From a virus, in the IMG/VR virus record IMGVR_UViG_3300033144_005525, positions 95,402 through 159,401 of that record: a stretch of 64,000 nucleotides of DNA, one strand, 5' to 3'. This document shows, piece by piece, positions 4,024-29,075 of the stretch. A model generated the notes under the pieces. The model saw only the letters and a program-made list of their open reading frames with translations, searched no databases and was not told the origin of the DNA. A program made the position numbers and the translations under genes. Every line of letters begins with the position of its first letter. Position 1 is the stretch's first letter.

Positions 4024-7000
4024 TCAGATGACCAGAGTCAGTCGGATGTAGTTTGCCGGGAATGGGACATCCAAGGTCACGTCGACCAGCACGGTGTCCG
4101 GATTGTCTCGGTCCTGGATGAGGTTGTTCAGATCACCTCCCAGGATAACACCACCCTCAGTGAGGAACTGCAGCATTCCCTGAATGACCGTCGAGAGGGT
4201 GTCCAGGAAGGGCTGGGTGATGTTGAACGTACCGATGAAGTTCCGCAGACCTGTCCGCATGAACTTCGCCACGAAATCGACCACCTTGGTGATCGACAGC
4301 TCTCGGGACTCGATGGACGTGATGTCCGTGGAGAGCTGGTGCCGGCTGATGAGAGGGGTGCCGTCGGCATCCTGCATCAGGACGTAGGTGCCACCGGCCG
4401 CCATGATGTTGAGCTGGCGGACGGAGAACGTGTCGTTGGAGCCCTGGACCCCGGTGAACCCGGTCATGGGCAGGTTGGTGAAGCCCTGCTGTGGGGGATT
4501 GAATGCGATCATCCCCGACATGGCTGCACAGGCGTAGTAGGCGTCGATGACCTCATCGAGCCCACTGAGGGAGGCGATGACAGTATCCGGGAAGACCGAG
4601 AAGACCCTCCGGTTCTGGATTCCACCATTCCTGGCAGCAACGCTCGAGGCGACAGCATCCTTGTCCTGGAGCGTAGAGCCGGCGATGAGCAGCTGAGCAC
4701 CACGGACCTTCAGGGACCAGTCCGCATTCAGCACCGTCTCCGTGAGCGGAGTGAGGGTGTAGAAGGCGTCATCGTTGAAGCCCGAGGAGAACGAGACCCT
4801 GAGTGTGGCCAGAGACCCACTGAACGCGGCGACGCTGTACCGACGCAAGGAGCCCGACACAGTGACTTCGATGAACAGGTTTTCGTCTTCGTCGATGGCT
4901 TCGGCCGGGTTGATGCCATTCTCGACCAGAGACGATGACGGATTGACATCCAGCAGAAGCTGGTTGTCCGTGGCTGTGGAGTCCGAGGACAGGCCTGAGG
5001 AGACCACAGTATCGACGGCACGATCTGGGACCGTCGGGTTCTGGAGGAGGATCCTCTCACCCTTCTGATCTGCCCCCGACATGAAGTCGATGTGAGTGCG
5101 GAAGATCTGGAAGACCGTCTCATCGTGCGTGAGAGGCGCAATGGCGTAGACCTCTTGGCTCTCGATGAAGTTGGTGACCTCTGCGTACCCGATTGCTGTT
5201 CCTTCCGGAGCAGCCGCAGTGGCCTCACCCACACCCAGGCCCTTGCAGGCAATTCCTGGAGCGTTGATGAGCTGGAAGAACATCGCCAGACCCAGCGGGT
5301 TGCCCGAATTGATCGGATTGAGAACCGACTGGAGGGTAGTGACGTCACTCAGGGTGATGACTCCCGGAGCGGCTGCACGAGGGGACACATCCAGACGAAG
5401 GGCCGTGTACTGGATGTAGACGTCTGCATCACCGGGACCAAATGGGTCACCTGTGACTGCACTGCGCAGGATCTCCGCACCCACCAGGGCATTGCCCGAC
5501 TGGTCGATCTGGAAGTCTGCGTTGGGACGACCGGAACCGCTGTCGTCCATGTTGCCTGTCGAGAGACCCAAGGCAGAGTATGCCTGGATGTTCACAGTGT
5601 CGTCGATGACCTCGACCCTCGAAGCAGCCCCCTCGAGCGGACTGGTGAGGACCATCCTGTCAAGTAGACCGCCGCCAATGGCGGCCACAGTGAAGCCAAC
5701 AGTGGCGTTGATCTCATCAACAGCGTCATCGAGAGAGTCACTGGTGAACACGACCGTGTAGATCTGGGGACGGTCGTTGAAGCGGAGCTTGAGGATCTGA
5801 GCGGCCAGATTCTCCTCACCGAGGTCCTCGTCCAAAGAGACGAACAGAATATCGGCGTCGTCTACAACCCCAATCGCCGTGGAGGCAGCTCCGATTCGGA
5901 TACCGACCAATGAACCAGAGGCAACAGTGGTGAAGACGAGCTTGTCTACGTTGTTGCTGACGAGGAACGTGGTGGGTAGCGTAGCTCCGTCCCAGTCGGC
6001 GGCGGTGTTGATAGCTGCCAACAGAGTTGCGATGTCTGCGTAGGCTGAGCCGGTGGTGGAGAACGTGAAGGTACGTGTACCAGCCGTCCATGTGACTCCA
6101 CCATCATTGGTCTGCTCAATGACGATGGTTTCGCCAGTGGTCTCGTTGAACGGGAACATCTGCGTGCCACCAGTAATGGCAGCGACGATATCGACGAACT
6201 CGACATCTGAGCCTGTGTCGGAGGCAGCAGCGATCCCCAGAGCAGTGAGTGCAGTGGACGAGGCCTTCAGCTGCAGAACGTGGGAGGCACCAGTGGTATC
6301 CACCGTGAGGCGAAGCTCTCCACCGTCATCCGTGGGAACCACACCAGCGATGTTGGTTCCGATGGCCGATACCACATCGGACATGGCGGCAAAGGGACCA
6401 CCGGTGAAGGTGAATGTGTCCTCACCCTGAGACACACCGTCGATCGTGACCTCGGTGATGAGAGTGAGTCCGGCCAGGGCGAACGGACCACCAGGAGACG
6501 TGGTGCCAACAAGAGTAGCTGCAGTCGCTACTTCTCCACCGATGGAACCTGTGAGTGTGGCTGCAGTCGCTGCGACGTTGTCTTCAGCGATGTTCCGGGC
6601 CTTGAACCAGCCGTAGCGGGGGGCGAACGGAACTCCTGCGAAGAGGGTGTTGAGGTCGCTGTCGTCGTAGACCGCCGTGAGGACGTTGCCATCATCATCG
6701 AAGGTGGACAGGGACGTGTTGATGATGCCGAGCTTGAAGCGACTGGCCTCGACACGCTGAACCTCTGCTGTCGAGTTGGGTCGGGTACCGTCTGCAACGT
6801 AGTAGTCCCCTACCTGAAGATCGATGGACCCAGCACCCGTGAAGATGATGTCCGCAGCGACTGCCTCTGCGTAGAGGTCTGCACTGTTGGAGTCCAGGCC
6901 AATCTGACCGAAGGACATCTCGGTGGTTCCGGACGTCAGGAACGACGCAGATACCGAGTCCTCGAGGTAGACGCCCTGGCTGAAGACGATGAAGGGGGAC

Positions 7001-7737
7001 AGCGTGGTGTTGTTGGACTGGTCTTCCGGGTGGAAGCCTGCGGCCGTGACCCGGTACTCGACGCTATCGCTGATTGCACCGAGGTCCGTGTTGGCAGAAC
7101 CACCAGGACGGACAGTCACCGAAGATGAAGCCCCCCAGATCAGGGAAGCGATCTGTACTCGATCGACGGCTCCGTTGTTGATGAGAGTCGCAACGGTTGA
7201 ACCAACTGCGGCGTTGATTTGGTCGGCGATCTGCTGTGCAGTGAGGAAACCACCACCCACTGTAGCGAACGTGACGATGACATCGTCCGACGTGTTCAGT
7301 GGTGCACGCTCATCGATAGCGAAGACGAGGATCTTGCCATCCAGGTCCAGACCAGCACCGCTGATCTCCAACGTGCGGAAAGCAGCCCGACGTGCTTCGT
7401 TGTGGGCTGTGAGGAAAGCAGAACCAGGATCTCTGTCGAGCTCCGACAGCGAACCGCCAAACAGAAGGGCCAGACGAATCGTGGCCTCTTCGACATCGAC
7501 TTCCTGGATGTTCCCTCGAGGGGACGGGAAGGCACTCTGCCCGATGGTCTGTGGGAGCTGGTTGTAAGCCCCCTGTCGAGCATCTGTGTTGATGAGACCA
7601 TCGGAGTCTACGAACTCCACGATCTCTTTTGCCGGGCCAGTGACGAAAGGAACCAGGGTGGGCTGAACGATTGTCGGGGCGGCTGCCTCGAATTCCTGGA
7701 TGACTTGTACGCCTGGACGTGGAAGCTCGGCTGCCAT
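4024..7737 (-). CDS. Contractile tail sheath protein with several inserted domains
   Basis: N-terminal RPGVQVIQE and C-terminal RHQLSTD...RELSITKVVDF...VDVTLDVPFPANYIRLTL are sheath hallmarks; 1237 aa, acidic and beta-rich. Confidence 0.9.
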   Translation of the reverse strand: MAAELPRPGVQVIQEFEAAAPTIVQPTLVPFVTGPAKEIVEFVDSDGLINTDARQGAYNQLPQTIGQSAFPSPRGNIQEVDVEEATIRLALLFGGSLSELDRDPGSAFLTAHNEARRAAFRTLEISGAGLDLDGKILVFAIDERAPLNTSDDVIVTFATVGGGFLTAQQIADQINAAVGSTVATLINNGAVDRVQIASLIWGASSSVTVRPGGSANTDLGAISDSVEYRVTAAGFHPEDQSNNTTLSPFIVFSQGVYLEDSVSASFLTSGTTEMSFGQIGLDSNSADLYAEAVAADIIFTGAGSIDLQVGDYYVADGTRPNSTAEVQRVEASRFKLGIINTSLSTFDDDGNVLTAVYDDSDLNTLFAGVPFAPRYGWFKARNIAEDNVAATAATLTGSIGGEVATAATLVGTTSPGGPFALAGLTLITEVTIDGVSQGEDTFTFTGGPFAAMSDVVSAIGTNIAGVVPTDDGGELRLTVDTTGASHVLQLKASSTALTALGIAAASDTGSDVEFVDIVAAITGGTQMFPFNETTGETIVIEQTNDGGVTWTAGTRTFTFSTTGSAYADIATLLAAINTAADWDGATLPTTFLVSNNVDKLVFTTVASGSLVGIRIGAASTAIGVVDDADILFVSLDEDLGEENLAAQILKLRFNDRPQIYTVVFTSDSLDDAVDEINATVGFTVAAIGGGLLDRMVLTSPLEGAASRVEVIDDTVNIQAYSALGLSTGNMDDSGSGRPNADFQIDQSGNALVGAEILRSAVTGDPFGPGDADVYIQYTALRLDVSPRAAAPGVITLSDVTTLQSVLNPINSGNPLGLAMFFQLINAPGIACKGLGVGEATAAAPEGTAIGYAEVTNFIESQEVYAIAPLTHDETVFQIFRTHIDFMSGADQKGERILLQNPTVPDRAVDTVVSSGLSSDSTATDNQLLLDVNPSSSLVENGINPAEAIDEDENLFIEVTVSGSLRRYSVAAFSGSLATLRVSFSSGFNDDAFYTLTPLTETVLNADWSLKVRGAQLLIAGSTLQDKDAVASSVAARNGGIQNRRVFSVFPDTVIASLSGLDEVIDAYYACAAMSGMIAFNPPQQGFTNLPMTGFTGVQGSNDTFSVRQLNIMAAGGTYVLMQDADGTPLISRHQLSTDITSIESRELSITKVVDFVAKFMRTGLRNFIGTFNITQPFLDTLSTVIQGMLQFLTEGGVILGGDLNNLIQDRDNPDTVLVDVTLDVPFPANYIRLTLVI

Positions 7738-8533: not shown

Positions 8534-8874
8534 TGGGGAGATTTGGCAGAAAGGCCTTCATCGACCTTCTTCCTGTACTTGCTCCCAAGTATCGCAGCAA
8601 GACCCCCAGCTATGGGAAGACCCCATCGAACAAGCCGTAACTTTGAGGTTGTGATAGGTGGTTTGGCTCGCATAAAGCGGTTCAAACCTTTGTGCCGCAT
8701 CAGCAGTTCAGAAGCCCCGACGCCGACGCCTGTACCTAAAGCAGCAGGCCCTACGGTCTTCAAAGCACGGAGCACTCGCTGTTTGTTGGACTCCCCCTCG
8801 GCCGCGGCGCCGATCTTGGAGAGCTCATCCAACAGTGCCGCGGGGGCGGTATCCGTAGACAGCCAAGAGGGCAT
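8530..8874 (-). CDS. Small basic protein with two hydrophobic Gly-rich segments and a DELSKIG leader motif
   Basis: GGAG 8 nt upstream supports the ATG at 8874 (the ORF track starts at 8934); LLDELSKIG resembles the motif shared by other head-region proteins. Confidence 0.55.
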   Translation of the reverse strand: MPSWLSTDTAPAALLDELSKIGAAAEGESNKQRVLRALKTVGPAALGTGVGVGASELLMRHKGLNRFMRAKPPITTSKLRLVRWGLPIAGGLAAILGSKYRKKVDEGLSAKSPQ

Positions 8875-9727
8875 TTTCGTCTTCTCCATGATCATCGGTG
8901 TGTTGAGGATTGGTGAAGTTGCGCTCTTCTGCAAACTGTTGATTCGCCAGATCCGTCAAGTTGATGGGGAGCTTGTACTCTACATCGCCTTTCGGGATGT
9001 GGTGAATAGAGAGCTCTTGTCGTACCACCGAACGTAGTCTCTCCGTACCCGACCTTGTCACCACCCTCCATCTCTTGTTCTCCGGCTCTACGATGATGTC
9101 TTTGGGCTTGATCGGAGGATAGGAGATGAGACGAGCAGAGGTGTTCTTCGGCTGCTGCTCTCCCTTGATGGCAGTATTCGATGGAGAATCCGGCTCTGGA
9201 TCGATCTGGATGTAAGTCTCAATGGGAGAGAGGAACCCACCGAGATAGCCAGTGTCGAAGCATGTGATGCACATCGACCTAGTTCTTCGATTCATCGTGA
9301 CGTCGAAGCAACCACACTTAGGACCAAAGGTACGAACAGGAAACAGCCAACACCTACGTCCGATGAGTTGCCGGAAGAGGACATCCTCTTGTCGTTGAAT
9401 CTCCAGAGAGATTAGGTCAGGCTCCGCCATCAGAGAGGCGGCTCCGATGACCTCCTCACTACTGGTTGGGATGTGGACGATCTTCAGCTTGTAGAAGATC
9501 TTGCGCCACTTGTGGAGCAAGTTGACACTGAAGTCACGGAACGAGTACTGGTCCTGAAAAGGCCCGGCGATCTGATCAAAGGGACCTTCAGGAGACTCGG
9601 ATCGTAGAACGAAGAAGTTGTAGGCCGTGATGACGTCCTGAGCATCACCGAAGTCGGAGATTTCCCAGAACAGATCGATGTGGTCCAGGTCGAAGCTTCG
9701 AGCTACGAACTTTGTGACCGTGAGCAT
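8825..9727 (-). CDS. Head-tail joining (neck) protein with a Zn-finger insertion
   Basis: FN3-like N-terminus, CGC...CITCFDTG motif, and position between head and tail genes. Confidence 0.6.
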   Translation of the reverse strand: MLTVTKFVARSFDLDHIDLFWEISDFGDAQDVITAYNFFVLRSESPEGPFDQIAGPFQDQYSFRDFSVNLLHKWRKIFYKLKIVHIPTSSEEVIGAASLMAEPDLISLEIQRQEDVLFRQLIGRRCWLFPVRTFGPKCGCFDVTMNRRTRSMCITCFDTGYLGGFLSPIETYIQIDPEPDSPSNTAIKGEQQPKNTSARLISYPPIKPKDIIVEPENKRWRVVTRSGTERLRSVVRQELSIHHIPKGDVEYKLPINLTDLANQQFAEERNFTNPQHTDDHGEDENALLAVYGYRPRGTVG

Positions 9728-9730
9728 GTT

Positions 9731-10699
9731 CTAAGCATACCCTCGGTCGCCCACAGATCTGGAATAACCCTCGACACCAGCCTTCTTGGTTTTCCTGGAC
9801 CGTTTATCGGTCTTCTTCTTGCGGCGAGCTCTCCACAATATAGATCCTCCCATAACACCCAGATAAGCGCCGGGAAAGATTAACTTCCTACTAGGGAAAT
9901 GCTTGGCGAAATGCTTGGCTTTGGATACTGCTCCCACAGCAGCTTGTTCAACTTGAAGAGCTGCTTGATGCTTGTTTTTGAGGGCAGATCCTATTGATCT
10001 ATCGAAGGAAGAGGGAAGAGCTGGTCCTGATGAATGTCCCAAACTATTGGACCACGCCTTGAATCGTGCATCTTTCGCATCTCGTAGAGCCTTCTTGGCT
10101 CTTCGTTGCATGACTGCTCCAGCCAGTTCACCAGAGCTCCCACCTACCAGAGCTCCCGCTGCGGCTCCTCCAAGTATATGTCTGCCGGCAGAGTTTTTCT
10201 TCGGCTTCTTCCTGGCCGCTACTTTGGTTTGAATCGGTTGGGTCATCTGCGCCGTGCTGGCGATGATGGGACTGGGAGTTTGCGTGACGTGAGGCTTTGG
10301 TGGACGCCCACGAAAGGACTGCTGGATCTCAGGAGGCTTCGGTTGCTTTGGAATAGGGATAGGCACCATGGCTGCCTTGCCCATCATCCCAGCTACACCA
10401 CGACGAGCCTTCTGCGCTCCCCAACCCGCTGCTCCACCGACTAGAGCTCCCTTGGCTGCTCCACCCATGGCACCTTGAAGTCTCTCACCAGGACGAGCCT
10501 TTGCTGCTCCGAGACCTGCTCCAGCCACAGCTCCGTACCCTGCCATGCGCATGGGCTTGAGCTTGTTCATCAACGAAGGAGCTGACTTCGCTTTTGGAGT
10601 GAACTTGAGTCCAGCCTTGATAGCAGAACCAATATTCCCGATAACTCCGGCCGTCTTATCCGCGTGAGGTTCGGCGTTGTCCCCAGCGGTTAGAAAGGG
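9731..10699 (-). CDS. Basic glycine-zipper protein, probably made as a -1 frameshift extension of 10690..11907
   Basis: The frame is open through 10699 with no ATG/GTG/TTG until 10573; the unannotated 5' part encodes DKTAG; repeated GAAxGALVGG segments. Confidence 0.7.
   Translation of the reverse strand, partial: PFLTAGDNAEPHADKTAGVIGNIGSAIKAGLKFTPKAKSAPSLMNKLKPMRMAGYGAVAGAGLGAAKARPGERLQGAMGGAAKGALVGGAAGWGAQKARRGVAGMMGKAAMVPIPIPKQPKPPEIQQSFRGRPPKPHVTQTPSPIIASTAQMTQPIQTKVAARKKPKKNSAGRHILGGAAAGALVGGSSGELAGAVMQRRAKKALRDAKDARFKAWSNSLGHSSGPALPSSFDRSIGSALKNKHQAALQVEQAAVGAVSKAKHFAKHFPSRKLIFPGAYLGVMGGSILWRARRKKKTDKRSRKTKKAGVEGYSRSVGDRGYA
10650..10699 (-). promoter_or_regulatory. Programmed -1 ribosomal frameshift signal (slippery heptamer plus hairpin or pseudoknot)
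   Basis: C CCU UUC is in the correct X XXY YYZ phase at 10699-10693; stem ccgc-ugggg / ccuca-c-gcgg follows; loop gccg is complementary to downstream cggc. Confidence 0.7.
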
Positions 10700-11907
10700 A
10701 GTACTACCGACGATGCCTTCTTACTCATCACGGTGGGCTTCTTGACTACAGTCTTCTTCCCAGCTTGCGAGGCTCTAGTAGCTGCCCTGCGTACTTGTGC
10801 AGAGATGAAGGCGCGAGAGTAAGCTTCCTTGATCTCCTCAGCAGTCTTACCAAGCACAAACTTGGATCCAGGAGCTCTTCCCTGAATCGAGGCGGAAGAC
10901 AGCCTCCTGGCAGCCGCATCAGCTGGGATGGGTGGAGGTGTTTTGAGTAGACCGGCCGACCTCATCGCTTTGGAGGTACCTGAGCGAGTGACCTTGGTCC
11001 CTCCCTTACCGACTGAGCTCCCTATGGTTCGTAGGATGCTCTGCGTCGCGGGGGACATGGCATTTTTGGACATGGCCTGCCTTGCCGAAAGGATCCCAGG
11101 ATGCTTGGACCTGTTCATGGCCTTGGCTATTCCGGCTCCTCCAGCGGCTCCAACCGCTCCACCTATGAGAGCCCCTTTTGCAGCTCCTCCTGCAGCTCCT
11201 CGAAGTCTGTTGCCTTCTCCCCCACGTATGGCTCCTCCGACGGCACCTATTCCTCCACCCACTAGCGCTGTGTTTCCTGCACCTCTCAAGGCCATCTTCC
11301 CGACATTGATTAGAGGAACTCCAGCGAACTTGGTCATGGTCTTCTTCAGACCACTCTGCAACATCTTGCCCCCACCAAATCGTCCAGCACCGTAACCAGC
11401 CATGGCGCCTGTAGCGAAGTCTCCACCCGTGGCCTTATTGGCAACACCACCACCAATTGCCAAAGCAGCATTGGGGTTCTTCATCGCCTTGGACATGACT
11501 TTGGATCCTGCGCCGCTCGTCATGACCTTTTTGGCTACACCGCTAAGCAGCTTGCCCACGAAGGCTTCCTTCTCCAGGTAGTCACCCAAGGACCCACCGT
11601 TCTCCAGAATGAAGGCCATCTTGATGGCATCATCATCTGACATGTCGGCTACGGCCTGGGTGAGTTCGTTCTGCTCCAACACAGCTTGCTCAGCTGCTTC
11701 AGCTGGAACAGATCCTTGCTCCTGAGCAAGCTCGCGACCCATCTGAGTGGCATCGGCGATCTTTTCTTGTAGAGCGTCGAGTGCCGCTGTGGGATGGGGC
11801 TGCTCTGCTTCACGGATCTCATTGATCGTGAGCTGCTCGAGCTGCTGAGCAACGTTTTCTTCTTGCCTCGGCTGATCGGCGCAGAGTTTCACTAGCCAGT
11901 TGTGCAT
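10690..11907 (-). CDS. Head-region protein with an acidic N-terminus and basic glycine-zipper modules
   Basis: 405 aa; GAGG upstream; EKIA, IKMA, EKEA, TKFA, GKTA, IKEA and KKAS motifs; ends on the heptamer C CCT TTC then TAA. Confidence 0.8.
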   Translation of the reverse strand: MHNWLVKLCADQPRQEENVAQQLEQLTINEIREAEQPHPTAALDALQEKIADATQMGRELAQEQGSVPAEAAEQAVLEQNELTQAVADMSDDDAIKMAFILENGGSLGDYLEKEAFVGKLLSGVAKKVMTSGAGSKVMSKAMKNPNAALAIGGGVANKATGGDFATGAMAGYGAGRFGGGKMLQSGLKKTMTKFAGVPLINVGKMALRGAGNTALVGGGIGAVGGAIRGGEGNRLRGAAGGAAKGALIGGAVGAAGGAGIAKAMNRSKHPGILSARQAMSKNAMSPATQSILRTIGSSVGKGGTKVTRSGTSKAMRSAGLLKTPPPIPADAAARRLSSASIQGRAPGSKFVLGKTAEEIKEAYSRAFISAQVRRAATRASQAGKKTVVKKPTVMSKKASSVVLPF

Positions 11908-11916
11908 GATTTCCTC

Positions 11917-13503
11917 TTAGTTCTTCAGTGCGCCTAGAACTTTGGCGAACATAAGCCCCATACCACCACCAACTGCCGCTCCTGTTGCTGCAGCCGCTCC
12001 TGGGTGCTTACGTTTTTCCACAGCAAGACCGTGCTGGAATTGGGTCATCAGCTTACCGATACCAGAAGAGTATCCTGTGTCTCCCCTGGTCTTGTTGGCT
12101 TTGACGTCGGCCTCGAAAGCCACTTCGGATTTGCTCTTCCCACCCAAGCTCTTCTGAGGACGACTACCCAGATACGTCGACAGTCCGAGCATGGCAGCTC
12201 CGGCACCTGCAAGAGCTAGAGTTCCTGGATCTGTGATTCCCTTGGGAATAGCCTGCCTGATCGACGATGCAATCGAAGCCTGTTTAGTGAGGGGTCCAGG
12301 CAAGGTCACAGCCTTCTTAGGACCTTCTGTACGATCTATTAGATCGAGTCGAGCTTTCTTGTAGTTGGTGTACTTCTTCTTGAGGGAGCCCCACACGTCT
12401 TCAGCATTTTCGATGATGGCTGAATCCTCTTGCTGTGGGTATCTCTCTGCTGCTCTCTGTTTGACCTCAGCCAAAGAGAGAGCGGGCATGGGAGCCGCCA
12501 CTGCGGACTTCATGAACTTGCTGACACCAACTTGAGAACGTCCTGCTAGAGCTCCACCAATAGCTCCGGCACCAAGTCCTTTGAGTCCTGCAGCGACACG
12601 ACTCTCTCCAGGCTTGGCGAGGATGGCATTGATGGCACCCGTGCCTGCTCCCCAACCAGCAGCATTACCAATCGTGGATTTCCAAGCAGGGCTCAGCTTC
12701 TGAGCTGCTTGTCCAACGGCACCGAGAACACTAGCGTTCTTGCCCATGGGCTTTTTGACGATGGAGGGCATAACCCCAGCCTGTGGGATCTTCTTTGCCA
12801 CTTCACGAGTTGCTTGTCCCTTAGCTAATGCCTTAGCCAGGTCGTCGGTGGCATTAGATTTCGCTATGACTCCACCAGGACCGTGAATACTTTTGAAAGT
12901 ATCCATGCTTCGGGCGAGTTGTCGCTGGCCAATAACCCTGCTGGTGCTGTGCATACCTCCAAAACCACCACCGAAAGCACCGCCTATCAAGGCACCCTTC
13001 AAGGCACCTTTGGCACGCTTGCCCTTCTTGCTGCCTGCTGCACCTACTAGGGCTCCAGGAACTGCACCAAGTACGGACCCTCTGCCTGCAAAGCTCAGTG
13101 CGCGTAGAGCAGCGTTGGCCTTCTTCTCTTTTGGCTTTCTCTTCTTCCTTCTCTTGAAAAGAGATACGGCAGCCATAGACCCTAAGACTCCGCCTGCAGT
13201 AAGAACAGCCAAATTGGGCTTATAGGTATAGGGAGCGGGGAATGGGCTGTAGGCTTGTTTTTTCAGATCTGAATTGTCGGCAGTTACGACGGCATTCTTG
13301 GACTTCTTCGGGATGTCCGTGAGCTTGCTGAACCCTCGGTCAGACAGAAGAGGTCCACCTGTTCCATGCTCGTCTTCAAAGTCCGCCTTCTTGATCAGAG
13401 CCGGTTGGCCCTTCAACAAGAGATAGTGAGCTGCGCAATCATTGAACTCATCAGAACGCTGGGAAGCGCTCTTCATCAGTTCATAGAAATCAGCCCGCTT
13501 CAT
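11917..13503 (-). CDS. Multi-module glycine-zipper protein with K-x-A linkers
   Basis: Likely start is MKRADF at 13503, which avoids overlap with the upstream gene; several Gly/Ala hydrophobic hairpins separated by KKQA, EKKA, GKNA, MKSA and TKQA. Confidence 0.75.
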   Translation of the reverse strand: MKRADFYELMKSASQRSDEFNDCAAHYLLLKGQPALIKKADFEDEHGTGGPLLSDRGFSKLTDIPKKSKNAVVTADNSDLKKQAYSPFPAPYTYKPNLAVLTAGGVLGSMAAVSLFKRRKKRKPKEKKANAALRALSFAGRGSVLGAVPGALVGAAGSKKGKRAKGALKGALIGGAFGGGFGGMHSTSRVIGQRQLARSMDTFKSIHGPGGVIAKSNATDDLAKALAKGQATREVAKKIPQAGVMPSIVKKPMGKNASVLGAVGQAAQKLSPAWKSTIGNAAGWGAGTGAINAILAKPGESRVAAGLKGLGAGAIGGALAGRSQVGVSKFMKSAVAAPMPALSLAEVKQRAAERYPQQEDSAIIENAEDVWGSLKKKYTNYKKARLDLIDRTEGPKKAVTLPGPLTKQASIASSIRQAIPKGITDPGTLALAGAGAAMLGLSTYLGSRPQKSLGGKSKSEVAFEADVKANKTRGDTGYSSGIGKLMTQFQHGLAVEKRKHPGAAAATGAAVGGGMGLMFAKVLGALKN

Positions 13504-13507
13504 GGCT

Positions 13508-14038
13508 CTACACCGTGTAGACGAGAATGAAGGCACCGTTGTCATCCAACAGCAAATGCTCCACCGTCAGCAAACCAACAGATCCTTTATTGCCGACAGC
13601 AGATGCACCTTCTGAGAATAGAAGGTCTTCATCTGTTGTGGCGCCAATGGCAGATGACCCTGGAGCAATACGCAAGGCATACCCTGGGTCGATCAGAGCG
13701 TGAGTGATGGTGAGCCTGTCTCCTGTGTTGGAGATGACGAACTCGGTAGGCAAGACGGCCCCATCCCAGCGAGCTCCTGTGTTGAGCTCGGCCAGGAGTG
13801 CAGCGATATTGGCATGAGGTCCCGCAGCACCCACCGTGAACGTTCTGCGAAACGCAGTCCAGGTATTCCCTCCGTCGGCGCTGCCCTCGACAACCAATAT
13901 CTCATTGACACTACCGAAAGTGAATCCGAAGGTCTGAACGCCACCTAGCAGTACGGCAGCGGCTGCAGCCGTCGTGATGAACTGCTCTAGATCAGCAGCA
14001 TTCTGGAAGACTCGGATTCTATGATCTGCGAGAGCCAT
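13508..14038 (-). CDS. Virion protein: paralog of the 48-aa upstream protein carrying a tail-sheath-like inserted domain
   Basis: Both termini align with 14048..14194 and the middle aligns with sheath region 5840..6183; AGGAG RBS. Confidence 0.8.
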   Translation of the reverse strand: MALADHRIRVFQNAADLEQFITTAAAAAVLLGGVQTFGFTFGSVNEILVVEGSADGGNTWTAFRRTFTVGAAGPHANIAALLAELNTGARWDGAVLPTEFVISNTGDRLTITHALIDPGYALRIAPGSSAIGATTDEDLLFSEGASAVGNKGSVGLLTVEHLLLDDNGAFILVYTV

Positions 14039-14217: not shown

Positions 14218-15030
14218 TTACCACCCCCCATAAAACCCGTTGGTCCAGCCATAGAGTGCCTCGGCAGCACGCACTTTGGGAAGGACATGTGAGAATTCCT
14301 CTTCGGTCATCTGTCCCGAATCGTAGACCCTGTGGTGGGTGGGACAAAGAACGAGGCAGTTCTCTTTTTCGATCGAACCGCCTTCTTTGACTGATTTGAT
14401 GTGAGCAAAGTCGAGAGTACGGTCTTCTCCACAGATCTCACAGCCATCAATGTTGAGTTCTTGGAAGACCTTGCGCTTCTTAGTGGAATGAGTCGAGAAA
14501 CGAAGATCTTTGGTGCGCCTCCAAGGAGCCTCGTGACCAACATCCTTCATGCGTCGGCAGATGACTCCATAGGAGACGTCATAGAGACGAGACAACTCTT
14601 CATAGGTCTTGCCTGCGTTGGAGAGTTGGACGGCCTCTTCAATGGGAATCTCTTGACGACGCCCATGATTGCGAGGACCGTTCGTCCACCTGTCTCTAGG
14701 GATGCTGAACCTCTCCATCCAGTCAATCCAGGTAGCGTAAGGGACCTTGTAGTGGCGGGCAGCAGAAGCAGCAGAGTCGAAGGCTGGGAGTGCTTCGAGC
14801 ATCCATTCACGAGTGGGCATGAACCCGGCGACTTTCTTCGTCCGCACCCCACCACTTCCTCGGCGCGGTACCTCATGTCGCTTGAGTAGTTGACGAACAC
14901 CTGGAATGGAGCAGCTCTCTTCCTTGGCAATCTCCAACGTCGACATCTCCCGATTCACATAGAAATCGATGATGCGTTCCGCATTGAGGCGTTGTTTTGG
15001 CATGACCCCTATGTTAGCACCAATTGCCAT
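14218..15030 (-). mobile_element. Free-standing HNH homing endonuclease with N-terminal HTH-like repeats
   Basis: CEICG...AHIKS...GG...NCLVLCPTHHRVYD HNH motif; flanked by duplicated ends of the neighbouring gene. Confidence 0.85.
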
Positions 15031-16513: not shown

Positions 16514-17635
16514 CTAGAACTGCGAGACGTCCGGGAACTTCAGCCCGTCGTCCACACGGTTGTTCACCGCTCCGAGCTCATCCTCTGCCACCGGCAGCTT
16601 GGCTGCGAAGCCCGTGTCCGTTGCGGTCGGGGTGACCGAACCGGCGTAGAGCTCCAGCTTCCGCACCGAGGCCACGTTGATGATCGAAATGGCGATGTCC
16701 ATCCAGGACTGCCACGTGATCATGTTGGCGACTTTGTCGATGTAGAACTTGGTGTTGTTGAGGATGTAGTTCTTGCCCAGGAACTCCGGGGCCGTGAAGA
16801 CGTAGACATTTCCCGTGCGGAGGATGTCGGTCTTGATGGTCCGGATGAGCTTGCGGCCGAGGAGGACGTTGTACTTGTAGCCGTCGACCATCGTCTCCGA
16901 CTGCATCTTGTCACCCATGTCCTGGAGGGTCCAAGACAGGATGTCGTCGTAGTCTGGCTCGGTCATGAGGAACCGCTCCGAGCGCAGACGGTTGCCGTCT
17001 AGCAGCTTGAAGAGGTTGACCAGGTCCGGCCGCAGGATCGGCTGCACCGTGAAGGTGATGCCACCCAGAGTGAGGGCACCGGTGCCCTTGATGACTGCCG
17101 ACTGCACGACTCCGCCACTGTTGACGTCGTCGGCCCGGAGAGCCGTCGCTGAGCCACCGTTGGCTTCGGTCTGGAGACCCTGACACGCCGACTCGATGTG
17201 GCGTGTGAACTCACGGTCCTTGATCTCCTGCAGATCCTTCACCGAGTTGTCCTCGATGATCTTGGTGATCGGCATCTCGTAGGCGAGGAGCTCCTGCTCC
17301 GTCTTCTCGAACTTCTCCGAGCTGACGGTGTAGAAAGGCACCTCTGCCCTCGGGGCACGGATGAACCGAGCCGTCGGCTGACCACGGAAGGTCAGGGTCA
17401 TCGCACGAGACTGGGGCTCGATGTCGACGATCTTGACCAGGGTGTCGTGGTTCACCGACCGCTGGCAGTCGGCCCGGGTGACCGGGTCGGGCGGGATGAT
17501 CTTGTCCACGTAGCAGACCTCACGGAGGCGGTCACGGATGTAGACGCTGCCCAGGGCAGCGACCTTCTCCTTGCCTTCGGAGGTGTCGAGGTTTTGCGCG
17601 AACATGTCGTTGAGAACTCGTGCCGGAACGCTCAT
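16514..17635 (-). CDS. Major capsid protein (HK97 fold inferred)
   Basis: 373 aa with strong GC3 bias, placed after protease, scaffold-like and decoration genes and followed by a terminator. Confidence 0.8.
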   Translation of the reverse strand: MSVPARVLNDMFAQNLDTSEGKEKVAALGSVYIRDRLREVCYVDKIIPPDPVTRADCQRSVNHDTLVKIVDIEPQSRAMTLTFRGQPTARFIRAPRAEVPFYTVSSEKFEKTEQELLAYEMPITKIIEDNSVKDLQEIKDREFTRHIESACQGLQTEANGGSATALRADDVNSGGVVQSAVIKGTGALTLGGITFTVQPILRPDLVNLFKLLDGNRLRSERFLMTEPDYDDILSWTLQDMGDKMQSETMVDGYKYNVLLGRKLIRTIKTDILRTGNVYVFTAPEFLGKNYILNNTKFYIDKVANMITWQSWMDIAISIINVASVRKLELYAGSVTPTATDTGFAAKLPVAEDELGAVNNRVDDGLKFPDVSQF

Positions 17636-18596: not shown

Positions 18597-20054
18597 TTAG
18601 TAGGCCCCACCGCCGCCCATGCCGCCCGGCATATCACCCATGGAGTTCTTCTCGGCCGCAGCCTTCAGCTTGCACACCTTGCAGGTGCCCTCGCCTCCGC
18701 ACTCACAGCCTTCCATGGCTACTTTGCCCGTCTGAGCGAACTGGTTGACAGTCTCTTGGGTGATGCGACCTTCAGCAGCTGCCTGCTTGATAATCGCGCT
18801 TGCACTTGCCTCTGCGATCTTCACCCCGGCCTGGCCGGCATTACGCAGTTGCTCTCGCAGTTTGGAATCCGTCGAAGGATTGAATGCCGGCTCGGTCAGG
18901 ACTTCCTTCATCTGCTTGCCCTGAGGCTTCTTGGCATCTGCCTTCGTGTAGTCGATGGCTGCCTGGTTGCCCTGCACGTGAGTGCGTTGTGGGTTCCCGT
19001 AGCCGGAGCCATCGGTAGCATTGCTGGGCACCTGCTCGGCCTGGTGGGCGTCCATCACACCATCACCGACCAGAGGGCCGCCGCCCTTGTCACCGCTGAT
19101 CTTCGCCTTCATGACGTCTTCACCGGCGAGCTTGCGTAGGATCTTGTCCCTGGCGATTTCGGCGGCTGTCTTTTCTTTGGAGCCTTCGCCTCCGGCAGTC
19201 TTGTTCTTCTTACCGCCACCCATGATGGCACTTGCACCTGCTGCACCACCTGCGACGCCGGCAGCGGGAACTCCGTAGCCGATGGCACGTGCAGTGTTGG
19301 GATTCATCCTGGTTGCAGCACCCTTTCCAGCTCGGGTGACTCCCTCGGTGACCTTGCGGCCCAATCCCTGGGCAGCGTCATCGACGAACCGAGCGGCGTT
19401 ACCGAGCATTCCTGCAGTCTTGGCACAGGCACACTTCTCGCCGGCCATCTTGCAGTTCCCGCACATGGCTTCCTTCTGAAGAACCTGGCTACCAGCCCTC
19501 TTCAGGAGATCGACCATGGCGGTCTTGCCGCCGGCATGGAACGGCCCGGCCGGTGGGTAGGTGGCTGTGGGAACTGATCCGGAGCCCTGCCCAGGAGCCG
19601 AATCCATGTCGTTCTTCATCTGGGTAGCTCCACCGGGGAGACCGGCGGTGCCTTCGGGAGTGGACGCCTGCGAAGCGGAGGCATCCTCACCCTTCGGGGA
19701 GTCCTTCTTGTACTTCTGGGTGCCCGGCATCGACGCCTGGACAGAGAGCTGCTCCGGAGTCGTGACTGCCGGGGGCATGTCCACACCAGCCATCTTGGCC
19801 ATGGCGTCACCGAGTACTCCACGGTTCGGGGTCTCGATACCGTCGATGTTGCCGGCGATGAAATCGCAAGCAGAAGCCAGCTTCTCGACGAAGGCAGGAT
19901 CGGTCCAGGACTGCTCCTCTTCCTGATCACCTTCATCGGTCTCTGGAGTCTCCGGCTTCTCGGGGAGATCTTGTTGACTGGCCAGCTTCTCGGTTGCCCG
20001 ATTCACTACGCCGGCGATCATCTCCTGAAGGGGAAGGTTGCTGATGGACGACAT
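18597..20054 (-). CDS. Scaffold or internal head protein with more than 12 K-x-A motifs
   Basis: 485 aa, low complexity, with two small Cys clusters. Confidence 0.7.
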   Translation of the reverse strand: MSSISNLPLQEMIAGVVNRATEKLASQQDLPEKPETPETDEGDQEEEQSWTDPAFVEKLASACDFIAGNIDGIETPNRGVLGDAMAKMAGVDMPPAVTTPEQLSVQASMPGTQKYKKDSPKGEDASASQASTPEGTAGLPGGATQMKNDMDSAPGQGSGSVPTATYPPAGPFHAGGKTAMVDLLKRAGSQVLQKEAMCGNCKMAGEKCACAKTAGMLGNAARFVDDAAQGLGRKVTEGVTRAGKGAATRMNPNTARAIGYGVPAAGVAGGAAGASAIMGGGKKNKTAGGEGSKEKTAAEIARDKILRKLAGEDVMKAKISGDKGGGPLVGDGVMDAHQAEQVPSNATDGSGYGNPQRTHVQGNQAAIDYTKADAKKPQGKQMKEVLTEPAFNPSTDSKLREQLRNAGQAGVKIAEASASAIIKQAAAEGRITQETVNQFAQTGKVAMEGCECGGEGTCKVCKLKAAAEKNSMGDMPGGMGGGGAY

Positions 20055-21176: not shown

Positions 21177-21794
21177 CTACTTGATGTAGCCGTTCTCGTG
21201 TAGGAACTGGATCGCCATTTCCTGTGCACGGGATTCCGCCAACTTCTCGACGTACTGGGCTGCGTTCTGGGGGATCTCACCACCGGCAGCGGGATCGGCC
21301 TGAGCAGCCTGCTGCTCTTCCGGCGGAACGACGGTACCGCCGAGGGCGGCGATCGCCTGGGTGAGGGGACCCTGTGCCGTCTTCTCGGCTGGCGGGCACT
21401 CACATTTCGCCTTGTCGCACTTGTCGCACTTCTTCTCTTCGGCTGCTGCCGGAGGGAACGGTGGCGGTCCACCCTCAGAAGCGATCTTCGACAGCTCCTG
21501 GGTGTAGGAGTGAGCCATGACCCTACCGAGGAAGTCGGCCTCGGCGAATTTCGCCTGAGCTTCTTCTTCGCCTGCGGGAACCTGTGCTTCAGGAGCGGCC
21601 GTGCCAGGCTGAGCTTCGTTGTCAGAGACAACCTGCTGAGCGAGTGAGTCGAGCTGCTCTTCGTTGAGACCAGAGAGGTCGATCCCCTCCGACTCGGCGA
21701 GCTTCTCGAGCATCATGGCCTGGGCGGTCTTCTCGAGGTCATTTTCGGAACCAGCAGCGTTGGTGCCATAGACGTTTGCGAGCCATTCATCCAT
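21177..21794 (-). CDS. Acidic scaffold-like head protein with K-x-A motifs
   Basis: EKTA (twice), EKLA (twice), AKFA and YTQELSKIA motifs; AAGGAG RBS. Confidence 0.75.
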   Translation of the reverse strand: MDEWLANVYGTNAAGSENDLEKTAQAMMLEKLAESEGIDLSGLNEEQLDSLAQQVVSDNEAQPGTAAPEAQVPAGEEEAQAKFAEADFLGRVMAHSYTQELSKIASEGGPPPFPPAAAEEKKCDKCDKAKCECPPAEKTAQGPLTQAIAALGGTVVPPEEQQAAQADPAAGGEIPQNAAQYVEKLAESRAQEMAIQFLHENGYIK

Positions 21795-21852: not shown

Positions 21853-23976
21853 CTAAGCAGCCGCTAGTACGCCCGATTGGGCCAGAGCCTCCGAATGGAA
21901 GTCCCTGTCTTCGTAGTGAGCCCCAACCAGGTATGCCAACGACTCGGGGCCCAAGACGTTGACACTAGCAGACTTCGTGATCCCGCCGGCGAAGGCCTGC
22001 ACCATGCTCTCACCCGCCGTAGCGAGCATGAGCTGGGGATCAGAAGCCATGGAACGTTCTACAACGCTGGCCTTCTTTACGAGAGAGCGTCGATAGCCAT
22101 TGTACAGCTCCGCCACCTTCTCCAAGAACTTGTCCCCACGAATCGGAGTGGGGGAACTCATACGAACATTCAACTGAGACACCAACGAAGCCCTCTTCTC
22201 CAGAGCGGGGGCTGCGATGGAACGACCGGGAGCAAACTGCATCAACGACGATTTCAATTCTGGATCCACCGAGGCTTCGTTGATTTCGATGGAGTCGTCA
22301 ATCTCTGTGGAGGGAGCAAAGACCTGATTACGGCCCTCGAGATCCTCTGCTAGAGCTTCCTCGCCGATCTTGGTGAGCACCATGTGCTGGAACTCTTGGG
22401 GCTTGAGAACGATCCCCAACATAGCTGCTGTCGAAGTGGAGACGTCGAACGCATGTTTCGACATCTGCTTGAGGACATTCTTTGGAAGAGTCCCCTCTGC
22501 TCTTTCCAACTTGGGCAACATAGCTTTCCGGAACGGTCCGGCTGGTATACTTTTTATAATCTCGCCAGCCTTCGAGTGGGAAGCGCTTTTTTCTCCGGGG
22601 GTTACCAAGAACGCCTCGGCCAGTTCGTCAAAGCTGCCACAGGAGTTGTCTGAGGCCTTCTTCGAGTGACCCTGCAGATACGAGGAGAAGGCCTGTGGAG
22701 TCATCTCCGTGGCTCCGCCAAACAGCTTGGCAGGGATATGTTTCAGGTACATAAGGGTCGCCGCCTTCTTCGACGAGAAACCCAGCATGACCTTGTCTTC
22801 GTCGTGCGTTCCGTCCTTCTTCAGCTGTCGGACGACGTAAACATCGGATCCTGCCTGCGGCTCTACGGCCAGGTAGATATCTACGGTCTCCCCGTCTTTG
22901 CCCAGGGTCTTGGGGATGTAACCGTAAGCGGCCTTCATCTCCCTCGACCACTTCTTGCCTTTGTCGTCCGTACCGGAACGTGTGTCGCCGGCGTCGACCT
23001 CGATCTTCAGAGTATGCCCATCGAAGGTGGTTTGGCGTTTAACTGCCTTACCAGCGGTCTTTTCGTAGATGGGGAAGCTCTCTGTGGCCACCTTCTGCAT
23101 GGCCCACTGATCCGCTAGATCCTGAGCTCTGAGCTCGGTGGGAGCAGAGAAGGCCTCCCCCACTTCTGCACTGGAGCGGGAAATTGAACAGAACTCCCCA
23201 AGACACTGCTGATTCTCCACACTGGCCAGCTTGGCAAGCATTTTGGCCGACTTGTCGGCGCCGATGAAGACGAAGCTGATGTCGAAGAACCTGGGGGTAT
23301 CGTTGCGGACAGCTACCTTGCGACCGTCCGGCAAGATCTTGTTCATCAGGAGCTTGGCGTCGTCGCAGTAGTCCTTGCGGGTCTTCGACTTGTGCCCACA
23401 TATCGTACATATGTCGTGGGGGACTTTGCAGCCCATCGACACATCCGGGAACTCCCCGTTGTCGATCCGGTTGATGACGTCTTCTGCCAGCCACTTCTTG
23501 CACAGAGCTCGGTCCAGATAGACCACAAGCTCGACGCGGTGCATCATGGGGTTCCACACCGCAATCTTCACCTCGCCGAAGGCCCTGCTCGGGTCCTTGT
23601 TGACGTGGTGCTTGTACGGGTAGGCGTTCATGAAGGAGGGAAAACCGTACTTCCAGGTTTTTCCCACCTTCTTCATCTCCTCCGGGGACATCTCATTCCA
23701 GTTGGGAGGAGAGTGAATCAGAGCGGCCTCAGGGAACAGGTCTCCGTTGACGTTGGATCCCCAGTACTCCCCGGCCCCCAAAGCGCTCACCAGGATGTAG
23801 ACGCCCTTGTCGGTAGGCTTCAGATCCTTGATGTAGCGTCGTACAGCTGGGTGCAGCTTTGAAGGCTTGGATGCAGCTGTCTTCTCAAGACCGTCCAAGA
23901 AGTCATGGCCCCAAAGGGGTTGGCAGAAGACATTCCCTTCGTCGTCCTGCCCTCTGAATTGGATCTGCTTGATCAC
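21853..23976 (-). CDS. Prohead maturation protease with an inserted inorganic-pyrophosphatase-like domain
   Basis: YKHHVNKD, DVSMGC...CTICGH and FFDISFVFIGAD resemble HK97/assemblin-type protease motifs; YGYIPKTLGKDGETVDIY...DEDKVMLG is PPase-like. Confidence 0.75.
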   Translation of the reverse strand: MIKQIQFRGQDDEGNVFCQPLWGHDFLDGLEKTAASKPSKLHPAVRRYIKDLKPTDKGVYILVSALGAGEYWGSNVNGDLFPEAALIHSPPNWNEMSPEEMKKVGKTWKYGFPSFMNAYPYKHHVNKDPSRAFGEVKIAVWNPMMHRVELVVYLDRALCKKWLAEDVINRIDNGEFPDVSMGCKVPHDICTICGHKSKTRKDYCDDAKLLMNKILPDGRKVAVRNDTPRFFDISFVFIGADKSAKMLAKLASVENQQCLGEFCSISRSSAEVGEAFSAPTELRAQDLADQWAMQKVATESFPIYEKTAGKAVKRQTTFDGHTLKIEVDAGDTRSGTDDKGKKWSREMKAAYGYIPKTLGKDGETVDIYLAVEPQAGSDVYVVRQLKKDGTHDEDKVMLGFSSKKAATLMYLKHIPAKLFGGATEMTPQAFSSYLQGHSKKASDNSCGSFDELAEAFLVTPGEKSASHSKAGEIIKSIPAGPFRKAMLPKLERAEGTLPKNVLKQMSKHAFDVSTSTAAMLGIVLKPQEFQHMVLTKIGEEALAEDLEGRNQVFAPSTEIDDSIEINEASVDPELKSSLMQFAPGRSIAAPALEKRASLVSQLNVRMSSPTPIRGDKFLEKVAELYNGYRRSLVKKASVVERSMASDPQLMLATAGESMVQAFAGGITKSASVNVLGPESLAYLVGAHYEDRDFHSEALAQSGVLAAA

Positions 23977-27185: not shown

Positions 27186-27219
27186 GTGGGAGGGGCGTAA
27201 AGCACGCTCCCCCTACTTT
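27186..27219 (+). terminator. Probable intrinsic terminator
   Basis: gggaggggcgt-aaagc-acgctccccct then actttt, between convergent genes. Confidence 0.55.
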
Positions 27220-29039
27220 TAGCTCTCTGGATGATGTTGCCTGGTATCTCTCATAGGAGCTATGACGTCTGGCCTCGGGTGTTTAATCATCGAAGCCAGG
27301 AAGCAAAGAAGAACGGAGTGGAAAGAGTCATCCGTCGTCATAGGACTCTTCTTGTAGACGTTCTCTCTGCGTTGCTCAGAATACTCAGAGAAGATGTTGA
27401 GGAAATCGGCTGCGAAGGGGGCCTGGAATTCTTCCCAGCATGGGAATCGGAACACGTTACGACGCTTGATAGCGTTGAAGATGTCCGACATGACCTCTGT
27501 GCGGTTAACCAGGAACCTCTTGAGCCCATCTTCCCATTTCACCTTAGCGTTCGGCGTCGAGTACTGATACTTGGCAATGCGTTGCCATCCGAACTTGCTG
27601 ATGAGCTTGTCGTTGGGCCAGAAGCCTCCGCCGTAATCGCACCCAGCTAGCTGCACCTTCCATCGCTCTATCTCTCTACTTACCAACTCGATCATTATCT
27701 TGGGTTCAGACTCTCGACCCTCGAAACGGTTGATGTAGACGATGGTGAACCGTCCCTGCAGGTAGCACCCAAGAGACAGAATTGTGTACGTGTTCTCTCC
27801 AGTTCCCCAATCGATTCCAGCGTAGATAGGAGTAGAGGCACCGAGATGCCTGATCATCTTCTCCTGGAAAGCTGCAGTGAGGTGAATGTTGGGATCACAG
27901 TTGTCCATGATATCTCGACGTGTAAGCGGTCGAGTACCTGTGTCGTAAGACAACCCCAAAACCTCGTTGTAGAACTTGGGACGTGAGTAAGTTTTCTGCT
28001 TCTGTAGGATCTCATCCCAACCAACCCAAGGGACCATGATCTGAGGGATACGGAAACCCTCATAGGGTTTGGGGATGTACTTGATGACGTCTGGATTCAA
28101 AGAGACCCACTGCGAATCGTCATCCATAGAAGCGATAGGCTTCTCGCAACGATCACATACCAAACCCTCTTTTCCGATGTGGTCCTCAGAGAGAATGTTC
28201 CAGTAAGCCTTGCTGAGGTGGGAACCTGTCTGGATAGCATGCCTATGGCAGGGAACTGCCCACTCGTTCTGGGTCGAATACTCAGTCCAGTAATACTCGA
28301 TTGGATTGTCCAGAGACTTCGGAGTCCCTGAGTACATGAAGATCTTAAAGTGCGAGTGCGATGCACACTCTTCGATAATCGGGATGTTGTCTGTGAGAAT
28401 GTCTTGGAGCTCATCAATACAGATGACGTCGGCAGGGATCCCACGAACACGATCAGCAGACATGTAGCAGTAGCGCAGAGTGATCTGACTACGGTTGATG
28501 AACTTCTTGAGGAAGACGTTGTCGGAGAGCTTGGTAGTGGTCCAGGACTTGAGGTACTCCGAGGTCTCGATGGGCTCCTTGAGCCTGTCCTGAGAGAAAA
28601 CCTTGGTCTGCTGATTGGTGGGAGAGACGTACAGAGCGTTGAGCGCCTGAATGATGCAGGCGTAGGACAACAACTTGTTTCCCAGGAGAGTGGACTTCTC
28701 TACCTGACGTCCGCATTTCAGCAAGGTTCTCTTACTGGACGTATCATATATCTGCCGAAGATACCGGCGACCCTCGAAGCTGAACTGCTCGTAGGTTTGC
28801 TTCAGCTTGTTCGGTAAACGAACAGCGAATTCCACGAAGCTAGAGGGGGATACATCTAGAAGCTCTCCCTGCCTCCGAACTACGTAGTCAACGTCGAACG
28901 ACTCTTCTGGCTCATGTTCGAAGTCCCACTCCTCTGGAAAGTCTGATCCAGAGAAGATGCCGTCGATACCATGTTGGACGATGGGTATCTGCTGCTCTCG
29001 CTCGAAGGCAGCTACGTCCTCAATGATTTCAAAGGCCAT
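27219..29039 (-). CDS. terL: Terminase large subunit (GpA-like)
   Basis: Walker A-like KCGRQVEKST, Walker B ICIDELQD, SGTP coupling motif, and nuclease motifs GIDWG and DDSFHS. Confidence 0.9.
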   Translation of the reverse strand: MAFEIIEDVAAFEREQQIPIVQHGIDGIFSGSDFPEEWDFEHEPEESFDVDYVVRRQGELLDVSPSSFVEFAVRLPNKLKQTYEQFSFEGRRYLRQIYDTSSKRTLLKCGRQVEKSTLLGNKLLSYACIIQALNALYVSPTNQQTKVFSQDRLKEPIETSEYLKSWTTTKLSDNVFLKKFINRSQITLRYCYMSADRVRGIPADVICIDELQDILTDNIPIIEECASHSHFKIFMYSGTPKSLDNPIEYYWTEYSTQNEWAVPCHRHAIQTGSHLSKAYWNILSEDHIGKEGLVCDRCEKPIASMDDDSQWVSLNPDVIKYIPKPYEGFRIPQIMVPWVGWDEILQKQKTYSRPKFYNEVLGLSYDTGTRPLTRRDIMDNCDPNIHLTAAFQEKMIRHLGASTPIYAGIDWGTGENTYTILSLGCYLQGRFTIVYINRFEGRESEPKIMIELVSREIERWKVQLAGCDYGGGFWPNDKLISKFGWQRIAKYQYSTPNAKVKWEDGLKRFLVNRTEVMSDIFNAIKRRNVFRFPCWEEFQAPFAADFLNIFSEYSEQRRENVYKKSPMTTDDSFHSVLLCFLASMIKHPRPDVIAPMRDTRQHHPES

Positions 29040-29075
29040 TGACCACACCTTAACAGAGACCTAGCCTTACAGGGG

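Follow-up and report, generated by a model that had tools for sequence, protein, structure and literature searches.

A stretch of 64,000 nucleotides (nt) from a virus (IMG/VR record IMGVR_UViG_3300033144_005525, positions 95,402 to 159,401), referred to here in its full length as the window, encodes on its minus strand two adjacent genes, B1 and B2, whose products are rich in glycine, alanine and lysine. Gene B1 (10690-11907) specifies a zero-frame product of 405 amino acids (aa) and ends at a TAA codon (10692-10690). It comprises an acidic helical N-terminal region of about 113 aa, ending EKEA, followed by Gly/Ala/Lys-rich segments, and its ATG is preceded, 6-9 nt upstream, by a good Shine-Dalgarno (SD) sequence (GAGG). 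As a plain open reading frame (ORF) call, B2 is a gene of 280 aa (9731-10573, minus strand). Its reading frame, which is the -1 frame of B1, extends over 320 codons from a CUA codon at 10693 to the stop at 9733-9731 and contains K-x-A motifs ('K-x-A' being a loose pattern), the motif GRPPKP, Gly-rich segments and a C-terminal RGYA; no counterpart of the acidic N-terminal domain of B1 (residues 1-113) is present in B2. In the current analysis B1 and B2 are found to be, very probably, one recoding unit joined by a programmed -1 ribosomal frameshift at the slippery heptamer C_CCU_UUC.

Slip motif at the end of B1

The last codons of B1 are CTC CCT TTC TAA, and the UAA stop directly abuts the heptamer (10699-10693, minus strand). 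An earlier note on this DNA, made from its letters, had placed the heptamer in exact X_XXY_YYZ phase, had described the -1 frame as closed by a TAA shortly upstream, and had found about 40 codons free of ATG, GTG and TTG. All three readings are borne out by the sequence: the closing TAA lies at 10723-10721, the frame is open from 10720 to 9731 (329 codons), and the first TTG (10573) and ATG (10570) are encountered 42 codons past the heptamer. From the B1 stop to these first potential starts the -1 frame runs for about 40 codons without a start (10574-10692, minus strand); this stretch reads PFLTAGDNAEPHADKTAGVIGNIGSAIKAG and includes the K-T-A codons (10649-10657, minus strand), the lysine of which is the one residue invariant across the B2 alignment.

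The likelihood of such a motif arising by chance has been estimated from the window itself, where 42 in-phase XXXYYYN heptamers are present in the 17,175 codons of 41 genes, 11 of them being of the class that shifts efficiently in E. coli. The probability of finding an in-phase heptamer within a 9-codon overlap is about 2%, and that of finding one of the E. coli-efficient class about 0.6%. No other heptamer of this kind in the window combines a position at a gene end with a -1 frame open over a long distance; for the C_CCU_UUC of B1 that distance is 322 codons. Two other in-phase heptamers of the E. coli-efficient class, both on the minus strand, have fairly long open -1 frames: G_GGA_AAA at 23659-23665 in a 707-aa gene, with a -1 frame open over 205 codons, and C_CCA_AAG at 39619-39625 in a 2104-aa gene, with a -1 frame open over 99 codons. 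Both are far from the gene ends and may be chance occurrences in GC-rich DNA.

Homologues of B1 and B2 were not found directly by IMG/VR pattern scans, by a word-indexed protein search (which returned the query itself only) or by tblastn against cultured phages. Relatives were instead reached through the major capsid protein (MCP; 80 IMG/VR loci) and through the 300-aa gene downstream of B2 (53 metagenome loci), and further ones by searching protein collections with the B1 of the relative L082 and with a B2 profile and then fetching the contigs; a scan of IMG/VR with the B1 alignment added no loci to those already collected. Twelve distinct genomes bearing B2 were thus collected, namely the window, L003, L082, L128/L142, L137, L138, L139, L140, L143, L144, L145 and L148, which are independent assemblies from different samples. 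B2 lies in the -1 frame of B1, with that frame open across the B1 stop, in 12 of 12. Identity to the other B1 sequences is 25-34% for the B1 of the window, and identity to the L003-type sequences is 24-26% for its B2; such high divergence indicates that both frames have been maintained for a long time. The N-terminal domain of B1 has homologues in L003, L082, L007, L084 and P0004-P0008, and B2 is homologous to the -1-frame ORFs of L128/L142, L140, L003 and L082. The more distant relatives have B1 only; that of L007, for example, ends ...KVAYRF* and is directly followed by the 300-aa gene. In six relatives devoid of B2, which serve as a negative control, no slip motif is present at the end of B1, and the next gene follows on directly. 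The GRPPK motif and the phmmer matches of B2 are likewise confined to the split genomes.

Among the relatives the length of B2 varies from 129 to 575 codons. This variation corresponds to the gain and loss of whole Gly-rich modules bounded by K-x-A motifs, as seen on comparing L139:1595-2287, L143:2261-3988 and L138:4302-5090 with L003:9256-9636; L139, for instance, carries an insert of 80-90 aa between VKTA and EKMAISKAWELESKPGRS.

The last codons of B1 are CTC CCT TTT ... TGA in L003 and L148, CTC CCT TTC ... in L139 and L143, GGC CCT TTC ... in L144, CTC CCT TTC ... TGA in L145, CTC CCC CCT CGA TAG in L140, TTC CCT ATC TAA in L142, TCT TTT ... in L138, GGT TTT CGC TGA in L082 and AGT TTT CGC TGA in L137. 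The in-phase motif is therefore C_CCU_UUY in seven genomes (the window and six relatives), C_CCC_CCU in one, U_UUU in three and C_CCU in one. Sharma et al. (2014; PMC4066793) count heptamers of the type H_HH.U_UU.Y, together with C_CCC_CCC, with the most efficient ones in E. coli. The tetramers rank there in the order A_AA.G >> U_UU.C > U_UU.U > C_CC.U = C_CC.C, and C_CC.U_UU.Y, U_UU.Y and C_CC.Y have all been measured as shift-prone (PMC4066793). On these data the motif at every one of the twelve junctions falls in a shift-prone class. Wherever a proline codon occurs at the site (nine of nine genomes) it is CCU preceded by C, in genes whose overall proline codon usage is even (27/25/24/24%), and the residues around the site diverge (VVLPF*, SPSFPI*, RQLPPR*, AIGPFAARRS*, ARLPFPFRR*). 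On this comparison the slip site is conserved at the level of nucleotides, beyond what protein coding would need.

Downstream hairpin and the start-less linker

The earlier note had drawn a stem just 3' of the heptamer, and this stem is recovered as both the minimum free energy and the centroid structure (-12 kcal/mol). The hairpin (10660-10689, minus strand) is built of a 5' arm CCGCUGGGG (10689-10681), an 11-nt loop (10680-10670) and a 3' arm CCUCA(C)GCGG (10669-10660) with one bulged C, and its z-score is about -2 against shuffles of the linker. Its start is 3 nt past the heptamer and 6 nt past the CCU codon, and 2 nt separate its end from the K codon of KTA.

Folding of only the stretch that separates the slip motif from the first K-x-A of B2 yields, in 12 of 12 genomes, one hairpin of 8-14 base pairs (bp). 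In the relatives it starts 5-6 nt past the slip motif, and in all genomes it ends 1-3 nt before the K codon; in every relative the hairpin is followed by K[TLK]A. Slip motif and K codon are separated by 41 nt in nine genomes, by 38 nt in two and by 35 nt in the window. The z-scores against shuffles of the same stretch range from -1.7 to -3.7 in 10 of the 12, with L137 (-1.4) and L140 (-0.5) lying outside this range. An extended 2-bp helix in L139 starts, as in the window, 3 nt past the motif.

RNAalifold applied to the twelve sequences yields one consensus stem of 8 bp, with compensatory changes on both sides at 5 of the 8 pairs. Standard pairs occupy 96.9% of the cells, as against 79.6% on shuffling (a level reached in 0 of 500 shuffles) and 29-65% after sliding of the partner by 1-3 columns; for covariation the score is 0.576, compared with 0.220 for shuffled alignments (0 of 500). 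The slid controls retain the relatedness of the sequences and yet fail. The peptide encoded by the linker is poorly conserved (LTAGDNAEPHAD, LNTAPTAATI, LTVRGTQVTPLAV, LIPPSATE), which indicates that selection acts on the RNA. The argument from the hairpin rests on its position and covariation and not on its stability.

Two further structural claims of the earlier note fared less well. The loop sequence GCCG (10675-10672) is indeed complementary to CGGC at 10653-10650, from which an H-type pseudoknot had been proposed; a pairing of 4 bp is equalled by 22% of shuffled loops and is not conserved, the corresponding pairing in most relatives being 3-4 bp, at the level of chance. The CGGC partner looks conserved because it is located in the conserved K-T-A codons. 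The pseudoknot has accordingly been rejected as a stimulator in the window on grounds of chance-level pairing and lack of conservation. Longer loop complementarity has been observed in L137 (4293-4380; GAAACGG, 7 nt, p 0.004) and in L143 (2240-2320; loop CCUCCA with UGGAGG, 6 nt, p 0.04), and these lineages, unlike the window, may have a pseudoknot. The description of the two genes as glycine-zipper genes holds only as a resemblance below the Pfam cut-offs and not as membership: the glycine-zipper score of B1 is 14.7 bits (cut-off 27) and that of gene A, the neighbour of B1, 18.9 bits (cut-off 25), and B2 has no match to the Pfam glycine-zipper families. With Gly-zipper_Omp (PF13488) and Gly-zipper_OmpA (PF13436) the proteins share GxxxG-rich Gly/Ala segments such as GGAAKGALIGGAVGAAGGAG; unlike the members of these families, they score below the curated gathering cut-offs.

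Several observations suggest that the start-less stretch is translated. When codon usage is scored with the remaining window genes as the training set, the favoured frame changes at about 10692 from that of B1 to -1; over the 114 nt that separate the stop from the first start, the -1 frame scores +15.6 and the other two -8.6 and -16.1. Conservation of the protein in the -1 frame precedes any start codon: the sequence KTAISKxWxLESKPGRS is common to L003 and L082, with differences that are mostly synonymous, the pattern LT.G...DKTA of the start-less stretch is common to the window and L128/L142, and the 80 start-less codons downstream of the B1 stop in L143 are closely similar to those of L144. 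Overall 25-80 conserved codons stand ahead of any start in the relatives. An SD-like duplex of -4 kcal/mol or better is found before 78% of the window genes (median -6.8 kcal/mol), and none is seen before the B2 starts TTG10573 and ATG10570 (-1.9 and -0.5 kcal/mol); the duplex scores of four candidate B2 starts lie between -1.9 and +0.1. The stretch 10574-10692 would thus be translated only as a transframe continuation of B1.

Probable frameshifting and competing explanations

The proposal of a -1 frameshift, made in the earlier note on the sequence of this locus, gains support from the -1 relation of the two frames, the slip motif, the covarying hairpin across the 12 assemblies, the coding switch, and the lack of a start codon and of an SD sequence. 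The check that it had called for in related genomes gives the slip motif class and the hairpin in 12 of 12, and its prediction of two products, of 405 and about 725 aa, is likewise supported as a deduction. Most ribosomes would terminate at the UAA and release the 405-aa B1 protein. A fraction of them would slip one base back on C_CCU_UUC, or on its C_CCU part, with the hairpin at the entrance of the mRNA channel, and would continue in the -1 frame through the start-less linker into B2. The predicted transframe product B1-B2 of 725 aa (9731-11907, minus strand) would carry the junction ...SSVVLPF-LTAGDNAEPHADKTA..., for which the expected junction peptide is ...VVLPFLTAGDNAEPHADK. The heptamer and CCU slip registers give the same protein. 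B2 itself lacks an N-terminal domain, and its entry into the particle may depend on attachment to B1.

The most serious rival is termination followed by reinitiation at the codon that overlaps the B1 stop (NUG-A or NUA-A), by which B2 would be a separate protein with an ATGA-type overlap. An overlapping start and stop always yields a -1 relation, and the overlapping codon is CTG in L003, L139, L148, L082 and L137. CUA occupies this place in the window, L128/L142, L143 and L144, and AUA does so in L140; neither triplet can be used as a start. In genomes with CGN as the last B1 codon, a canonical start would arise with three of the four nucleotides at N; the most frequent one is nevertheless C, which gives CTG. 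There is also no SD sequence ahead of the overlapping codon, and reinitiation would leave unexplained both the nucleotide conservation of C_CCU(_UUY) and a covarying hairpin at 5-6 nt. We consider this explanation improbable, and still less probable is initiation of a 280-aa B2 at the internal TTG 10573 or ATG 10570, with the upstream open frame, the heptamer and the stem all fortuitous. An internal start is what the plain ORF call returns, and about 22% of the window genes are similarly without a clear SD sequence. Against such a start, the 40 codons upstream have a coding score in the -1 frame and hold both the invariant K of K-x-A and the LT.G..DKTA shared with L128; the 25-80 codons conserved before any start in the relatives, and the conservation of heptamer and hairpin, argue in the same direction.

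The presence of one long ORF (524-807 aa) at this position in several more distant relatives speaks for an indel of assembly or sequencing, or for a single gene recently inactivated by mutation, as the cause of the frame break. These ORFs have no detectable B2 sequence, the B1 of L007 ends at an equivalent ...RF*, and the same -1 break is present at the same place in twelve independent assemblies, with both frames open and under selection at the protein level; the break shared by the relatives excludes the assembly indel that the earlier note had asked to be checked, and we regard this explanation as a whole as highly improbable. L084 was considered as an in-frame fusion of B1 and B2 and was rejected (BLASTP E 0.26). 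Transcriptional slippage is to be thought of at a site composed of a run of C and U. Known slippage of the polymerase needs homopolymers of about 7-9 nt, and the runs are of only 3+3 nt in the window and at most U5, in L003; the conserved 3' hairpin at 5-6 nt fits ribosomal frameshifting, and slippage during transcription appears very unlikely here.

A number of observations weigh against programmed frameshifting as the explanation of the B1-B2 junction. Four of the relatives possess only a tetramer in place of the full heptamer, and the twelve genomes are related, their counts not being independent of one another. The overlapping codon is TTG in L138 and L145, where it overlaps TGA and is used as a start by gene callers, and a GTG stands just before KTA in L082 and L128; independent initiation is possible in some lineages. 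The 3-nt spacer after the heptamer in the window is atypical in comparison with the 5-6 nt of the relatives, whose 6-nt spacing is found in the window only when counting begins at the CCU codon. At -12 kcal/mol the window's hairpin is of modest strength. In a comparison of hairpin energy with all 54-nt windows of each locus the signal is modest overall and the rank of the window's hairpin, 0.53, is unremarkable, and folds of 73 nt in the window give a z-score of +0.65.

Within the frameshift explanation, the distribution of K-x-A motifs suggests a further step. In every genome such motifs lie on both sides of the slip site and hairpin, and they also mark the boundaries of the variable B2 modules; upstream of the slip site they occur as KKASS, KVASLPF and KASFR. 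K-x-A is suggested to be a candidate site for a maturation protease, with B1-B2 as a processed polyprotein of carrier and passenger. It is conceivable, though we would not favour it at present, that the frameshift cassette is a disposable linker in this protease-processed polyprotein, the shift setting the dose of Gly-rich modules that have neither a start nor an N-terminal domain, could enter the capsid solely as passengers on B1 and would then be cut free.

The K-x-A pattern, mostly as [DE]K[TLV]A, is also over-represented in head-module proteins encoded on the minus strand of the window: 17 occurrences are observed against 6.1 expected in a 485-aa protein (18597-20054), 17 against 6.3 in a 707-aa protein (21853-23976) and 6 against 2.2 in a 205-aa protein (21177-21794). 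All relatives examined retain the motif EGK[EQD]K[VIN]A at about residues 20-27 of their MCP, and in the 707-aa protein YEKTAG (306) and SKKAS (439) lie on either side of the InPase domain.

Genomic setting, known systems and significance

The record that carries the window is that of an uncultured phage of 191,126 bp with an estimated completeness of 91%. The minus strand of the window encodes a head and packaging module that includes the large terminase (27219-29048), the 707-aa protein with its InPase domain (PF18823, E 2e-35; residues 306-434), which also matches PHROGs of large virion and polyvalent proteins, the MCP (16514-17635; phrog_2522), small genes and an HNH endonuclease gene. Gene A (11917-13545, minus strand; 542 aa), also Gly/Ala/Lys-rich, precedes B1. 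Downstream of B2 are located a conserved Cys-rich gene of 300 aa (8825-9727) and, beyond it, a gene of 1237 aa (4024-7737, minus strand). The nearest cultured phage is Salmonella phage Arash, with an MCP identity of 28.8%, the clade being effectively uncultured, and the Arash annotation is uninformative for this locus. B1 and B2 have no matches among the PHROG and Pfam families, and they show neither sequence similarity to the tail assembly chaperone (G/GT) family nor its position between the tail tube and tape measure genes.

Two neighbours deserve mention. A 176-aa protein (13508-14038, minus strand) is 41-46% identical to an internal segment of the homologues of the 1237-aa protein, on the basis of tblastn matches inside these proteins in L003, L004 and L007, which points to a shared or duplicated domain. 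The HNH endonuclease gene (14218-15030, minus strand; phrog_8446, PF13391) sits within the head-to-neck row of genes; it is found in L013, is missing at the same position in most relatives, and behaves like a mobile insertion.

The architecture of the B1-B2 junction is that of a textbook bacterial-type -1 frameshift cassette, and its logic is closest to lambda G/GT and to the T7/T3/A2 type. With lambda G/GT (PMC5009743) it shares a downstream ORF without a start of its own and would share a short and a C-terminally extended product from one mRNA, presumably in a fixed ratio. It differs in involving another gene family, with Gly/Ala/Lys-rich proteins of 405 and 320 aa, in lying between the head genes and the Cys-rich 300-aa gene and not between the tail tube and tape measure genes, and in its slip motif, C_CCU_UUC as compared with G_GGA_AAG. 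The capsid extensions of T7/T3 gene 10A/10B and of phages A2, A118 and A500 likewise arise from a -1 shift located at the extreme 3' end of a gene for a virion protein, and the T7 motif G_GUU_UUC shares with the present one a U-rich site decoded by tRNA-Phe and a C-terminal extension on a fraction of the molecules (PMC5009743). The gene described here is, in contrast, not the MCP, the extension of 320 aa approaches the upstream product in length, and the stimulator is an adjacent hairpin where T7 uses distant elements. The cassettes of the IS3/IS911 family and of dnaX (PMC4066793) have in common with it a heptamer, a spacer of about 5-8 nt and a downstream stem-loop; here no upstream SD-like enhancer is seen, the stop abuts the heptamer, and the site belongs to a phage structural module. 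Nothing relevant was found in the literature on frameshifts in ejection or glycine-zipper phage proteins. The junction is a well-supported new example of a known trick and not a new mechanism.

Conserved programmed frameshifts of tailed phages are known mainly from tail assembly chaperones and from extensions of capsid and tail-tube proteins. The B1-B2 site belongs to a different, fast-evolving Gly-rich family of the virion module, in an uncultured clade of phages of roughly 190-210 kb. In this clade gene callers miscall B2 from an internal ATG or TTG, and the site supplies a rule for annotation. The twelve natural variants of the cassette, with their heptamers and tetramers, covarying stem and fixed spacing, can be used to test rules for motif and spacing. 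The polyprotein reading, if true, would describe a system of recoding plus proteolysis that loads variable cargo or ejection peptides, and processing at K-x-A would then offer a route to studying how phages dose their internal or ejected proteins.

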